Assembly: GCA_000004695.1 (NCBI GenBank)
Contig: CM000155.2
Span: 3,040,001 to 3,104,000, forward strand
Direction of reading: 5' to 3'
Source of the DNA: Dictyostelium discoideum
Taxonomy: Eukaryota
DNA length: 64,000 nucleotides
Part shown: positions 41,583-47,627 of the stretch, one piece after another
Position numbering within the stretch: position 1 is the first letter of the stretch
How the letters are laid out: the number at the start of each line of letters is the position of its first letter
The notes under the pieces: generated by a model
What the model saw: only the letters and a program-made list of their open reading frames with translations
Databases searched by the model: none
What the model was told of the DNA's origin: nothing
Program-made: the position numbers and the translations under genes

Positions 41583-43428
41583 TTAATTAGTGTTGAAAAA
41601 CATACCGTCCTCAATTCCATTCTCTGGTTCCGTAACACTTTTAAAATTTGGAGAATTTGTATTCAAAGTACCTTGCTGTTGAGGGTTATTAAAATTATTA
41701 TTGTGTATATTATGAGGTTGAGAGTTGGTTGATGGAGAAGACATTGGAATAGAAGAGTCAAATGATGAGAAATCTAAAAATGTTTGAATATGTTGGTTTG
41801 GAGTTTGTTGGTTTGGATTTTGTTGGTTTGGATTTTGTTGATTTGGATTTTGTTGTAGATTTGGATTTTGTTGATTTGGATTTTGTTGTTGATTTGGATT
41901 TTGTTGTTGTTGTTGTTGATTTGGATTTTGTTGTTGTTGTTGTTGTTGTTGGTTTGGATTTTGTTGTTGGTGCATTTGTAAATGAAATTGAGGGTGGCCA
42001 CTTTGTTGTGGACCACCTTGATGCATTGGATGATGCATTGGATGTTGTTGATGCATTGGATGTTGTTGCATTGGATGTTGTTGCATTGGATGTTGTTGCA
42101 TTGGATGTTGTTGTAGGTTTGGATTTTGTTGTTGTTGGTTTGGATTTTGTTGTTGGTTTGGATTTTGTTGTTGGTTTGGATTTTGTTGTTGGTTTGGATT
42201 TTGTTGTTGTTGGTTTGGATTTTGTTGTTGTTGGTTTGGATTTTGTTGTTGATTTGGATTTTGTTGTTGATTTGGATTTTGTTGTTGTTGGTTTGGAATT
42301 TGTTGTTGGTTTGGATTTTGTTGTTGATTTGGATTTTGTTGTTGGTTTGAATTTTGTTGTTGGTTCGGATTTTGTTGTTGGCTCGGATTTTGTTGTTGTT
42401 GGTTTGGAATTTGTTGTTGATTTGGAATTTGTTGTTGATTTGGATTTTGTTGTTGATTTGGATTTTGTTGTTGTTGTTGTTGATTTGGATTTTGTTGTTG
42501 TTGTTGATTTGGATTTGGATTTTGTTGTTGCTGTTGTTGATTATGCATTTGCTGTTGTATTTGTTGTTGTTGCATTTGTTGCATTTGTTGTTGTTGCATT
42601 TGTTGTTGTTGCATTTGTTGTTGTTGCATTTGTTGTTGTTGCATTTGTTGTTGATGCAATTGTTGTTGATGTAATTGTTGTTGTTGGATTATATGATGTG
42701 CTTGATTTTGAGCATGTTGTAAGTGTTGTGGGTGATGTTGATGTTGATTTGGTGGTGGTGGTGGTGGTGGTTGTTGGTTTTGATTTTGTGGCATATTGGT
42801 AGAAGCTGGTGGATGCATATTAGTTTTAATATTTTCAGCATTGTGTTGTTGTGGTTGTGGTTGTTGTGGTTGTTGTGGTTGTTGTTGCTGTTGTTGATTG
42901 ATATTACTACTATTAGAAGGAGAGGAAAGTGGTGATTGAGGCGGTAGTTGTTGTGGTGGTGTTCCATCAACTTGTGGAGATGGTATACCACCAGTAGATG
43001 ATTTGGATATTGAACCACGTTTAGAAGATGATGACCCTTTATTACTATTACTGTTATTTGCCTCTTCGACATGCTTTCTCTTTTTTGAAGAAGATGCTGA
43101 TGTTGATGAGGATGATGCTGATAATGCTGTTGTTTGAGATTTGTTTTTTTCAACTTCGAGATCATTAGAAGAAGAACTCTTTTTAGTTGATCTACTTCTT
43201 GATTTTGAACTTGAGTTTTGGTTATTATTAATATTATTAGATATTGGTGGTGTGGTTGTTGATGTTGCCAAATTACTATTACTGTTTGATGGATTTGGTG
43301 TTTGAGGTGGTGAATTAATTGGTGGTGATGCAAGGTTTGGCACACCATTTGATGAATGTAAATTATTATTATGACTATTATGATTATTAGGATTATTATT
43401 AGGATTATTATTATTATTGTTATTGTTA

Positions 43429-43478
<50 letters not shown>

Positions 43479-43788
43479 GGGATTATTATTAGGATTATTA
43501 TTATTATTATTGTTATTATTAGGATGATTATTATTATTATTACTGTTATTATTATTATTATTAATGTTTGGACTTGCTGTTGAAGAAATATTTACACCGT
43601 GAGAGTTTTGGTTAGGGTTATTATTATTATTATTGTTGTTGTTGTTGTTATTATTATTATTACTACTATTATTATTATTATTATTATTATTATTAGGATT
43701 ATTATTATTATTAGGGTTATTATTGTTATTATTATTGTTATTATTGTTGTTATTATTATTAGGATTGTTTGGATTATTGTTATTAGGA

Positions 43789-43838
<50 letters not shown>

Positions 43839-44951
43839 GTTATTATTGTTATTATTAGGATTATTATTTGGATGATTTGGATGATTATTTGGAACTAAAT
43901 GTCCTGCTTGATTCTGAAATTGTTGTACTAATCCATGTGCCATTCCAGTGTAAAATCCAGGAGGAGGTTGACCCATTCCTTGAGGTGGTGGATAAGCACT
44001 CCAATAATATTGTTGTCCATTTGCTACCATATGTTGAGGGATTCCTTGTGGCATTCCCTGTGGTCCTCTGTGAAATTGAATTTGTGCTCCACCTTGCATT
44101 TGTGGATATGGAATCCCGTTTACAACCTTTTGAAATTGACCATGTTGTTGCATTAATTGAGGGTTCATACCTTGTTGGTGCGGATGCATATGGAATTGAT
44201 GTGGATGACCTTGTTGTTGATTTGGATGACCCTGATTTTGACCTTGATTTTGACCTAGATTTTGACCTTGATTTTGACCTTGATTTTGACCTTGATTTTG
44301 ACCTTGGCCTTGACCTTGATTTTGACCTTGACCTTGACCTTGATTTTGATTTTGATTTTGATTTTGGTTTTGATTTTGATTTTGATTTTGATTTTGATTT
44401 TGACCTTGATTTTGGTTTTGGTTTTGGTTTTGGTTTTGGTTTGGGTTTGGGTTTTGGTTTGGGTTTGGGTTTGGGTTTGGGTTTGGGTTTGGGTTTGGGT
44501 TTTGATTTTGGTTTTGATTTTGATTTTGATTTTGGTTTGGATTTTGATTCTGGTTTTGGTTTTGGTTTTGGTGATTATTTACGGGTGGGGTTGGTGGTTG
44601 GATATTTGTAAAATCTTGAGAACCTTTCTTTTTGATTGGGGATGGTGGTTGAACTTTTCCCACTCTCTTCTCCTCTTCATGATGTTTTATATTTACAGTT
44701 GGTGTTGATGGTGATGAGTGAGAAATACCATTTTGTTGACCTTGTGGATTTATTTGTTGATTTTGTTGATTTTGTTGATTTTGTTGTTGCATATGCTGTT
44801 GTTGCAATTGTTGCATATGTTGATTATGAATAAATTGTTGATGCATTAATTGCTGATTCTGTTGGTTCATTTGGTTATGCATTTGTGGTGATTGGGGTGG
44901 ATGTTGATTTTGATTTTGTTGATTGTTAGGATTATTATTACTATTATTAGG

Positions 44952-44982
<31 letters not shown>

Positions 44983-46214
44983 GGATTATTAGGATTATTA
45001 TTATTAGGATTATTATTATTATTACCATTATTATTATTATTAGGATTATTGTTATTGTTATTATTATTACTATTATTGTTGGGATTATTATTATTACTAT
45101 TATTGTTGGGATTATTATTATTACTATTATTGTTGGGATTATTATTATTATTATTATTATTGTTGTTGTTGTTCATTTGTTGTTGGTGATTCATCTGTTG
45201 CTGATGATTCATGTATTGTTGATGATTCATTTGTTGTTGATTGGTCATTTGTTGTAAACTATTAAACTGATTTTGGAATTGATTATAACTATTTTGTTGA
45301 TTTGGATTTTGATTTGGATTTGGATTTTGATTTTGATTTTGATTTTGATTTTGATTTTGATTTGGATTTGGATTTGGATTTGGATTTGGATTTGGATTTG
45401 GATTTGGATTTGGATTTGGATTTTGATTTTGAGGTCCATTTGCATGTGGTGATTGAATGGATTGATTTTGTGGTGATGACATATTTTGACTTGCCATTAA
45501 TTTAGCCATAACAGCTGCTTGTGTTTGGTTGTTCATTTGTTGTTGATTCATTTGCTGTTGATGTGTCATTTGTTGTTGATTCATTTGCTGTTGATGTATC
45601 ATTTGTTGTTGTTGTTGTTGATTATTCATTTGTTGTGGATTATTCATTTGTTGTTGATTATTCATTTGTTGTGGATTGTTCATTTGTTGTTGTTGTTGGA
45701 AAGGGGGATGACCAAATGGATAAGGTTTTGATTGACTTGGACTTGGCATAGGAACATTTTGACCTTGTGGCCCATTCATTTTTTGTTGGTGGTGCTGTTG
45801 TTGTTGTTGCAATTGCATTTGCATTTGCATTTGTAATTGTTGATGTTGTTGTTGATTTTGTGGTTGTGGCTGAATTACCCCATTTGGTAATGATATACTA
45901 TTTCTTGGTGTTGATGGTTTTGAACTTGGACTACCGCTCATTGGGTCTGATCCATTATGTTGTTCGTTATTATTATTATTATTATTGTTGTTATTTGGAT
46001 TATCATTTGATGGTAATACATCTTTTTCATCAGTTTGATTTGATGATTTATCTTTTTTATCTTTTTTACCTTTATTTGATTGATTTGGAGTTGATGGTTG
46101 TTGTGTATTATGAATTTGTTGTTGAGGTGTATTTGGTTGTTGAGGTGTATGAGGTGTTTGAGGTTGGCCTTGCTGTGGAGTATGAGGTGTATGAGGTGTT
46201 TGTGGTTGTTGACC

Positions 46215-46288
<74 letters not shown>

Positions 46289-46615
46289 GCTGCTGTTGAT
46301 GAATTTGTTGCATCATTTGATGTTGAATTTGAAGATGTGGTGGTTTTTGTTGTGGTGAATTGAATTGACTATTTGGTTGTGGTCCGTGTCCTGGTGTTGC
46401 CACCAAAGGTGATGTCATTTGACCATGTGGTCCATGTGCTGGTGTTGATGTTGGATGTTGATTTGGTGTTGTAATTGGTCCTGAGTTTGGTGTTTGTGGT
46501 GCTTGTAAATTATTATTATTTTGATGTTGTTGTTGTTGTGGTAATTTATTTGCTAAAGATAATGGAGATACAGATGAAGTTGGTGAAGTTTGTGTAATTG
46601 GTGAAGCAGTATTAA

Positions 46616-46677
<62 letters not shown>

Positions 46678-46859
46678 GAATTTTGATTATTTTGATTATT
46701 TTGATTATTTTGATTATTTTGATTATTTTGATTATTTAAATTATTTAAAGCATTATTAAAATTTGCTTGTAAATGTTGATGTTGTTGTTGTAATTGTTGT
46801 TGTTGATGTTGTTGTTGTTGTAATTGCTGTTGATATTGTTGATATTGTTGTTGATGTAA

Positions 46860-46892
<33 letters not shown>

Positions 46893-47470
46893 CTGTTGTT
46901 GTTGTTGTTGTTGTTGAACCAATTGTTGTTGTTGTTGTTGTATTTGAAGTTGTAGTTGAGATTGTTGTTGTAGATTAGATTGTTGTTGTTGATGTTGTGC
47001 TTGTTGTGCTTGTTGATAGGTTTGTTGTTGTTGTAGTATCTGTTGTTGTAAATTTATGGTTTGATGTTGTTGTTGTTGTGCTTGTTGTTGCAATTGTACC
47101 GATTGTCGTTGTATTTGTATATCTAATTGTTGCTGTTGTTGTTGGTGTAAATATTTGGTGAAGTTTATATACGCCTTAACTGTCTCATTATTTGACAATG
47201 ACATTCCATTCGCTTTTGCAAAAAATACATCCCAAAACATATTCCACCATTCACATAAAAAACTTTCACCACTACCACCACCACTATTATTATTTATATT
47301 ATCACCACTACTACTGCTACCACTACCACTGCCATCAACACTACCACTACCACTACCACCTGTATCAATCATTTGTACATTTGATGGTATTTTCACTTCT
47401 GCTTTAAATGCATCCACTGTACTCTTATAATTATTCTTTTGTAAATAATCTAAAATATATGCGTTTAAAC

Positions 47471-47519
<49 letters not shown>

Positions 47520-47627
47520 ATTATTATTTTCATTATTTTCATTATTATTAGTATTTTGTAAATTATTTGTAATTAAATTATTATTATAATTATTTATTAT
47601 ATGTTTAACATGAGATGGAGGTTCCAT
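41583..47627 (-). CDS. LisH/LUFS-domain (SSDP / Flo8 / LEUNIG-like) Q/N/P-rich transcriptional co-regulator, 2014 aa, single exon
   Basis: The N-terminal LisH is LNAYILDYLQKNNYKSTVDAFKAEV. It is followed by FLCEWWNMFWDVFFAKANG, the SSBP/Flo8 LUFS signature (FLxxWWxxFWD). The rest is low-complexity poly-Q, poly-N and (NP)n/(NQ)n/(GQ)n. These are encoded by hexanucleotide repeats such as (GATTTG/GATTTT/GACCTT)n at 44222..44570 and 45300..45430 on the plus strand. All plus-strand ORFs inside this span are repeat artefacts. Confidence 0.8.

Follow-up and report, generated by a model that had tools for sequence, protein, structure and literature searches.

In a 64,000-nucleotide stretch of the Dictyostelium discoideum genome (GenBank assembly GCA_000004695.1, contig CM000155.2, positions 3,040,001 to 3,104,000; hereafter the window), a long gene for a protein rich in glutamine, asparagine and proline occupies positions 41583..47627 of the minus strand. 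We consider it probable (roughly 0.72) that its product works in the nucleus as a transcriptional co-regulator and belongs to the LUFS family, which comprises LEUNIG/LUH, Flo8/Som1 and SSDP/SSBP proteins, and that by domain sequence and architecture it stands nearest to fungal Flo8/Som1. Two further assemblies labelled D. discoideum were used for comparison: GCA_054883475.1 (L001), which is 99.7% identical to the window with all differences in intergenic homopolymers, and GCA_054859355.1 (L002), about 88-92% identical in this region.

The gene and its product

The gene is a single uninterrupted open reading frame (ORF) that runs from ATG to TAA through 2014 codons plus stop, just as a preliminary description of the sequence had proposed. 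Among the six frames of the span it is the sole stop-free one, the other five holding 51 to 335 stops. Since stop trinucleotides fill 7% of positions in the window (G+C content 15-34%) and the other frames are riddled with them, 2014 open codons in a row are not a product of chance. In-frame stops lie directly 5' of the ATG, and the DNA upstream is rich in A/T homopolymers and promoter-like. The ORF is a real D. discoideum gene. Exact protein matches were found for neighbouring ORFs (XP_629017, esf2; XP_629018, DDB_G0293684; XP_629021, D. discoideum AX4), which assigns the window to strain AX4, presumably chromosome 6, and the gene belongs to the 2005 reference genome; apart from its LUFS identity, this is an ordinary D. 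discoideum locus.

41583..47627, minus strand: complete ORF, gene of the Q/N/P-rich LUFS-domain protein (only stop-free frame; 3' 4.1 kb identical in L001; orthologous product of 2123 amino acids (aa) annotated in L002)
41548..41605, minus strand: disputed terminal mini-intron of 58 nucleotides (nt), GTATGT...AAAAAG (L001 annotation versus L002 annotation)

The composition of the product is extreme. Glutamine makes up 26.9%, asparagine 26.6% and proline 10.2% of all residues, so that Q and N together account for 53%. Codon use is equally one-sided, CAA encoding 516 of the 541 glutamines and AAT 442 of the 536 asparagines. The longest pure glutamine run has 28 residues (aa 444-471), shorter than the runs of about 40 given in the preliminary description, which was right about asparagine runs of up to about 25: the longest measured has exactly 25 residues and starts at aa 1384. 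The (NP)n, (NQ)n and (GQ)n tracts mentioned there were also found, in the form of (NP)10, (NQ)10 and (GQ)3.

Whether the gene is strictly intronless, as first described, depends on its 3' end. The continuous ORF speaks for this, and so does the annotation of L002, where the coding sequence ends at the ORF stop. In the annotation of L001, the coding sequence ends 46 nt beyond the ORF stop and the product has 2010 aa. We could reproduce this length by a reconstruction with a 58-nt terminal intron, reaching from GTATGT at 41605 to AG at 41548-41549; such splicing puts EKK in place of GMFFNTN and shifts the stop to 41537-41539. Exact protein look-up returned no match for the reconstructed 2010-aa variant. 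Comparison of isolates revealed that the 3' flank of the gene is no less conserved than the coding end, and conservation therefore cannot choose between the two models. Judged from the sequence, the term intronless is essentially right, with this one possible terminal intron set against it.

The N-terminal domain and its relatives

The ordered part of the protein lies at its N-terminus and consists of the following elements, for which a structure model was built by AlphaFold2 (AF2) with 30 aligned sequences; pLDDT denotes the predicted local distance difference test.

47397..47468, minus strand: LisH motif, aa 54-77, LNAYILDYLQKNNYKSTVDAFKAE (PF08513; AF2 helices aa 52-64 and 68-77, pLDDT 81-88)
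47271..47363, minus strand: G/S/N-rich low-complexity loop insertion, about aa 89-119, between LisH helix 2 and the third LUFS helix (30-residue gap in the BLASTP alignment with a plant LUH-like N-terminus; AF2 pLDDT <50)
47217..47261, minus strand: LUFS signature helix FLCEWWNMFWDVFFA, aa 123-137 (invariant columns; alignment with SSBP2; AF2 helix aa 120-139)
47103..47186, minus strand: fourth helix, aa 148-175, leading into the Q-rich region (AF2 helix, pLDDT 85-90; conserved A..Y column)

Pfam recognises LisH (PF08513) at aa 54-77 with 30.1 bits in the full protein and 34.5 bits in the N-terminus, the cut-off being 21.6. After an insertion of about 30 residues rich in G and S, the sequence continues with FLCEWWNMFWD (aa 123-133), and the whole segment FLCEWWNMFWDVFFA aligns with FLHSWWCVFWDLYCA of the SSBP2 LUFS domain. 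An exhaustive phmmer search of 1.84 billion representative proteins, with aa 51-174 as the query, yielded 61 matches, the top one with E = 6.7e-10 and 41% identity. Nearly all of them share the same layout, a LisH-like LNxYIYDYL followed at variable distance by GFLxEWWxxFWDxFxA. The long matches look like fungal Flo8/Som1 proteins, and some of the short ones are presumably N-termini of plant LEUNIG/LUH. A later search with the family profile added fragments assigned to the fungi Gigaspora and Entrophospora and to lichen ascomycetes.

In alignments of 24 and 30 sequences, both including the D. discoideum protein, the invariant columns Y57, D60, F123, W127, W128, F131, W132 and D133 are all present in it; W128 is invariant in the 24-sequence alignment only. 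In pairwise BLASTP, a Flo8-like (yeast-type) protein matched at E = 6e-14 and an LUH-like N-terminus at E = 1e-12; in the latter alignment the G/S/N tract stands out as a single clean insertion of 30 residues that separates ID.pG from FLxEWW. Insertions at the same loop position occur in many fungal homologues. When a profile built from our protein and its homologues was compared with the Protein Data Bank, exactly four matches were obtained, all of them LUFS domains (E = 3e-12 to 1e-10): SSBP2 (8hib, 6tyd and 6iwv) and Drosophila SSDP (6s9r), with the LisH and helix-3 parts both aligned. In the AF2 model, helices span aa 52-64, 68-77, 120-139 and 148-175, and the loop aa 78-119 is disordered. 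Based on these profiles and on the model, we conclude that the N-terminal domain is most likely of the LUFS type, its loop carrying a low-complexity insertion. This bears out the assignment of LisH plus LUFS made in the preliminary description, the LisH motif scoring above the Pfam cut-off and the profile matching solved LUFS structures. When the full length of 2014 residues was scanned with Pfam at E up to 1, LisH alone was returned, and no WD40, no CTLH and no SSDP-type family.

Comparison with the characterised members of the family narrows down the relationship. Fungal Flo8, Som1 and SomA (together with Mss11, the yeast paralogue) have the LUFS domain at the N-terminus and, like our protein, contain extra residues inserted between the LisH motif and the FLxEWW helix. 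Their long, Q-rich and largely disordered bodies, basic clusters resembling nuclear localization signals (NLS), lack of WD40 repeats and acidic/aromatic C-terminal tails are likewise shared, and they also provide the best sequence matches. On the other hand, the D. discoideum protein is about three times longer (2014 aa versus 588-981 aa in full-length matches), contains far more asparagine and NP/NQ repeats, and does not detectably conserve the C-terminal and mid-protein motifs of the fungal proteins.

Animal SSDP/SSBP2-4, partners of LDB1/Chip in the core of the ChiLS/Wnt enhanceosome, possess a LUFS domain homologous at the profile level, followed in both cases by a disordered proline-containing tail. 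Animal SSDP/SSBP proteins are about 390 aa long. Their LUFS domain, unlike ours, has no loop insertion, and a tail of the SSDP type was not recognised in our protein (Pfam, E up to 1); the island at aa 1133-1256, rich in P, G, M and Q, is alike in composition only. With no SSDP-type tail recognised, we reject an SSDP orthologue in the strict sense. Plant LEUNIG/LUH, co-repressors of the Gro/Tup1 type, combine LisH and LUFS with a subsequent Q-rich region, and the similarity to their N-terminus is the one found by BLASTP above. In plants, however, repression needs seven C-terminal WD repeats, none of which exists in our protein. By architecture we also reject a LEUNIG-type Gro/Tup1 co-repressor, since the Pfam scan contains no WD40 and the AF2 model of aa 940-2014 contains no folded domain. 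For want of WD40 repeats, the analogy with LEUNIG drawn in the preliminary description fails. We place the protein closest to Flo8/Som1 because the best matches are of fungal type and have loop insertions, the body is Q-rich, an NLS-like KKRK is present and WD40 repeats are absent.

The protein body, its variation between isolates and the surrounding DNA

The approximately 1840 residues that follow the LUFS domain are Q/N/P low complexity derived from in-frame tandem repeats and broken by a few non-repeat islands. An AF2 model of aa 940-2014, run on the single sequence with no alignment, has a mean pLDDT of 33.5, and its sole structure is a low-confidence helix in a QQQM repeat. This is consistent with a body predicted to be disordered beyond the LUFS domain, as first described.

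The repeats were mapped with Tandem Repeats Finder (TRF), whose arrays span 57% of the ORF. Their periods begin with 3, 6, 9, 12, 15 and 18 and reach 75, all of them being multiples of three.

46215..46298, minus strand: longest pure poly-Q, 28 Q, aa 444-471, (CAA)n (TRF and translation)
45299..45429, minus strand: period-6 array with (NP)10 and (NQ)6 (TRF, 21.8 copies, 96% matches)
44233..44570, minus strand: period-6 array of mixed NQ/NP/GQ dipeptides, aa 1020-1132 (TRF, 56.3 copies, 84% matches)
43362..43868, minus strand: asparagine-rich (AAT)n region including runs of 25 N and 23 N (TRF period 3, 168 copies)
41805..42516, minus strand: 18-nt array of about 40 NPNQQQ(Q) hexapeptide repeats (TRF period 18, 39.9 copies)

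In-phase hexamer repeats had been noted at two spots, and TRF indeed places its period-6 arrays there, with AAT-CAA (NQ), AAT-CCA (NP) and GGT-CAA (GQ) as coding-strand units; together, these two arrays account for no more than about 8% of the ORF, and the 18-nt array is the largest of all. The plus-strand ORFs over the same span are low-complexity strings of V, L, I, D, F and G, and no Pfam match was found in any of them. They exist because reverse complements of CAA, AAT and CCA hold no stop codons, which agrees with their earlier dismissal as mirror artefacts.

The islands between the repeats are of a different nature. One of them, at about aa 519-542, contains KGKKDKKDK. Four others could be compared with L002:

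44571..44750, minus strand: conserved non-repeat island, aa 960-1019, with KHHEEEKRVGKVQPPSPIKKKGS (identical to L002 save one inserted T; charged cluster and KKGS site)
43860..44231, minus strand: conserved P/G/M/Q/aromatic-rich island, aa 1133-1256 (1 substitution in 124 residues versus L002; no Pfam match; AF2 pLDDT <50)
42888..43370, minus strand: conserved S/T/K-rich island, aa 1420-1580 (near-identical in L002; KKRK at aa 1515-1518, KKSS, KRGS)
41586..41795, minus strand: C-terminal 70 residues, aa 1945-2014, QHIQTFLDFSSFDSS...GIEDGMFFNTN (100% identical in L002)

Evidently, singling out the first 170 or so residues, as the preliminary description did, overlooked these conserved segments. 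A motif scan detected three sites of the form basic-basic-x-S/T, at aa 1000, 1482 and 1536, all within islands conserved in L002. The C-terminal tail, TFLDFSSFDSS...GIEDGMFFNTN, is acidic and aromatic, and its sequence makes it a possible activation or partner-binding motif. Their conservation indicates that the non-repeat islands probably carry function.

Differences between isolates are distributed very unevenly along the gene. The readable 4.1 kb of it in L001 (window 41583-45683) is identical to the window. The L002 orthologue of 2123 aa was aligned over its C-terminal 1221 residues with the last 1130 residues of our protein, and the two differ by 24 blocks of in-frame indels, each 1 to 28 residues long (net +91 in L002), all located in repeat tracts. 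In the NQ/NP/GQ period-6 array (aa 1020-1132) L002 has insertions of 20 and 10 aa and many N/G/P swaps; in the (AAT)n asparagine region there are indels of +5, +19 and -19 aa, and the NPNQQQ array has undergone several indels and partial replacement by (NP)n. Over 335 codons of the islands, 13 differences are synonymous and 5 non-synonymous; for the repeat columns, where the alignment is uncertain, the numbers are 57 synonymous and 74 non-synonymous. These counts point to purifying selection on the islands while repeat lengths change freely. The arrays had been expected to be hyper-variable between strains, which is true of the comparison with L002, about 88% identical, and not of L001, where no length change occurred over 4.1 kb at 99.7% identity. 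Microsatellite mutation rates in D. discoideum are disputed, and coding repeats have been reported as highly variable (PMC9234386).

Several features of the surrounding DNA deserve mention. Between the LUFS gene and a divergent neutral ceramidase gene there are about 3.4 kb (window 47628-51012) with 15-18% G+C and long poly(A)/poly(T) runs, in which no convincing ORF was found; an intergenic region of this length is on the long side in D. discoideum. The next gene downstream of the LUFS gene, convergent with it, is a Ykt6-like SNARE gene at 40260-40990 on the plus strand; when two introns (gene positions 96-165 and 286-382) are spliced out, its reconstructed product has the annotated length of 187 aa. 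An NF-X1-type zinc-finger ORF of 1506 aa (55576-60096, minus strand) contains a poly-N of about 45 residues as well as poly-T and poly-Q, and shows how common such runs are in regulatory genes of the window.

Further away, a 444-aa ORF without Pfam match (26410-27744, minus strand) falls into a 17-member cluster, at 90% identity, of D. discoideum hypothetical proteins (DDB_G0293684 and others) from several chromosomes; it is probably a retroelement ORF adjoining tRNA genes. Three tRNA genes were detected, at 13148-13220 (plus strand), 28583-28666 (plus strand) and 29438-29510 (minus strand). Two are tRNA-Glu(TTC) of identical type, and the third, 84 nt long with 57.8 bits in Rfam, was left unassigned by ARAGORN (odd anticodon loop, possibly intron-containing). 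Between the multi-copy 444-aa ORF and a tRNA gene, a 199-bp tandem repeat (27842-28535) is present in 3.5 copies in the window versus at least 18.4 in GCA_054883475.1 (L001 1-3663), the difference being either a real change in copy number or an assembly collapse.

Identity of the protein and its possible role

Most likely, by analogy with the family, the protein would serve in the nucleus as a scaffold or co-activator that an LDB-type adaptor brings to DNA. The LisH/LUFS module would self-associate into dimers or tetramers and dock onto an adaptor of the LDB/SEUSS/Mfg1(PtaB) type, which in turn would bridge to DNA-binding factors. Such partners are known in each of the three kingdoms: SEUSS/SLK adaptors for plant LUH/LUG (PMC4015341), PtaB for SomA and Mfg1 for Flo8 in fungi (PMC4631450), and LDB1/Chip for SSBP in animals (PMC10287724). 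KKRK and similar basic clusters may send the protein to the nucleus, and its Q-rich tail and acidic/aromatic C-terminus may give multivalent contacts of the activation type.

Several results weigh against this identity. The sequence of our protein alone, compared with solved LUFS domains, reaches only E = 0.12, with the alignment colinear, and Foldseek with the monomer model finds short LisH matches (LIS1 and SMU1; about 30 residues, E >2) or unspecific helices. A hidden Markov model of ten fungal C-termini (motif DFDFxxFL...FNWG) has no significant match in our protein; a shared C-terminal motif with Flo8/Som1 was accordingly dropped, the likeness of TFLDFSSFD...DGMFFNTN being visible by eye only. 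By exact look-up the 2014-aa form is absent from protein collections, and a dictyostelid orthologue was found neither in the word index, nor in the exact index, nor in the library of representatives at 50% identity. Within the word index, low-complexity candidates overwhelmed the search with the N-terminal 180 aa, and a LisH+LUFS construct without the linker produced no candidate sharing three 5-mers. The collection that lacks the LUFS product does include neighbouring AX4 proteins. The Foldseek matches to LIS1 and SMU1 could be taken as a hint of a LisH protein of some non-transcriptional class, be it a dynein regulator like LIS1, a component of a CTLH/RanBPM-type E3 ligase or a splicing factor like SMU1, and the PAC1 LisH model of Pfam does score 28.6 bits. 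But these matches cover no more than the LisH segment of about 30 residues, at E >2, Pfam detects no CTLH, WD40 or other domain, and the FLxEWWxxFWD helix of the 61 sequence homologues is the LUFS signature, all of which makes membership in such a class extremely improbable.

The meaning of the repeats can be judged apart from the identity of the domain. The preliminary description saw in the protein a strong candidate for behaviour like that of prions or for phase separation, and the Q/N-rich body might be a true prion or condensate switch, heritable or stress-triggered and tuned by repeat-length alleles. Its composition fits, 53% of residues being Q or N and about 92% of 60-residue windows being positive (best window about 114 bits) by an approximate PLAAC-style log-odds table, so that the result is a composition proxy. 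Repeat lengths do differ between isolates, and stress alters the solubility of some predicted prion-like D. discoideum proteins (PMC13093961, PMC11537047). However, this composition does not distinguish the protein and is uninformative here, because 1,733 D. discoideum proteins share prion-like features, and the endogenous and exogenous examples tested in this organism stay soluble (PMC4964863). Extreme Q/N content and homopolymer or dipeptide repeats of CAA and AAT are traits of this prion-like proteome as a whole, and such tracts are over-represented in regulatory proteins, the class to which ours belongs (PMC4964863, PMC9234386); only size sets our protein apart. Runs longer than 35 residues occur in 632 proteins for poly-N and 118 for poly-Q (PMC4964863), and with 28 Q and 25 N our protein stays below that threshold. 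Moreover, 10% proline, introduced by NP and NPNQQQ repeats, should disfavour amyloid, and in the repeats, uncertain as their alignment is, non-synonymous differences are no rarer than synonymous ones, which gives no sign of selection on exact sequence. We regard such a switch as unlikely.

A better case, somewhat short of even odds, exists for the repeat tracts as neutral slippage filler tolerated by proteostasis, all function residing in the LUFS domain and conserved islands. All 24 in-frame indel blocks versus L002 (1 to 28 residues, net 91) fall into repeats and leave the islands nearly invariant, periods that are always multiples of three imply selection only for frame, and coding repeats are abundant genome-wide, with their functional status left unresolved in PMC9234386. 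Against pure neutrality, a Q-rich region follows LUFS in plant, fungal and amoebozoan members alike, which suggests a functional Q-rich tail. Furthermore, repeats are read in the Q/N frame over the alternatives, which the genome paper, as cited in PMC9234386, took as a sign of selection. Within the LUFS co-regulator that we favour, the repeats would be mostly tolerated slippage products, and not a specific prion switch.

Our search of the literature for Dictyostelium proteins with a LUFS or LisH domain or of the Flo8 type brought up no relevant paper. The protein is an uncharacterised member of a family that is, like the Q/N-rich proteome of Dictyostelium, itself well known. It may even act in the manner of Flo8/Som1, downstream of cyclic AMP-dependent protein kinase A (PKA) and together with an LDB/Mfg1-like adaptor, to turn on genes of adhesion and multicellular development, a doubtful idea that we offer by analogy. 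The KKGS, KKSS and KRGS sites in conserved islands would then be candidate PKA targets, and are to be taken as a lead only.

In plants, animals and fungi, developmental transcription is organised by LUFS co-regulators together with their partners: LEUNIG pairs with SEUSS, SSDP with LDB/Chip and Flo8/Som1 with Mfg1/PtaB, respectively. To the picture of an anciently evolved LUFS-LDB module the D. discoideum gene adds an amoebozoan data point. Comparing isolates offers a clean example of coding-repeat evolution, in which length shifts stay in frame while the islands and the two termini remain constant. For Dictyostelium researchers the gene is a candidate scaffold of developmental enhancer complexes. 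If the Flo8/Som1-like role were true, the route from PKA through a LUFS factor to adhesion genes would be an ancestral path to facultative multicellularity, common to fungi and social amoebae.

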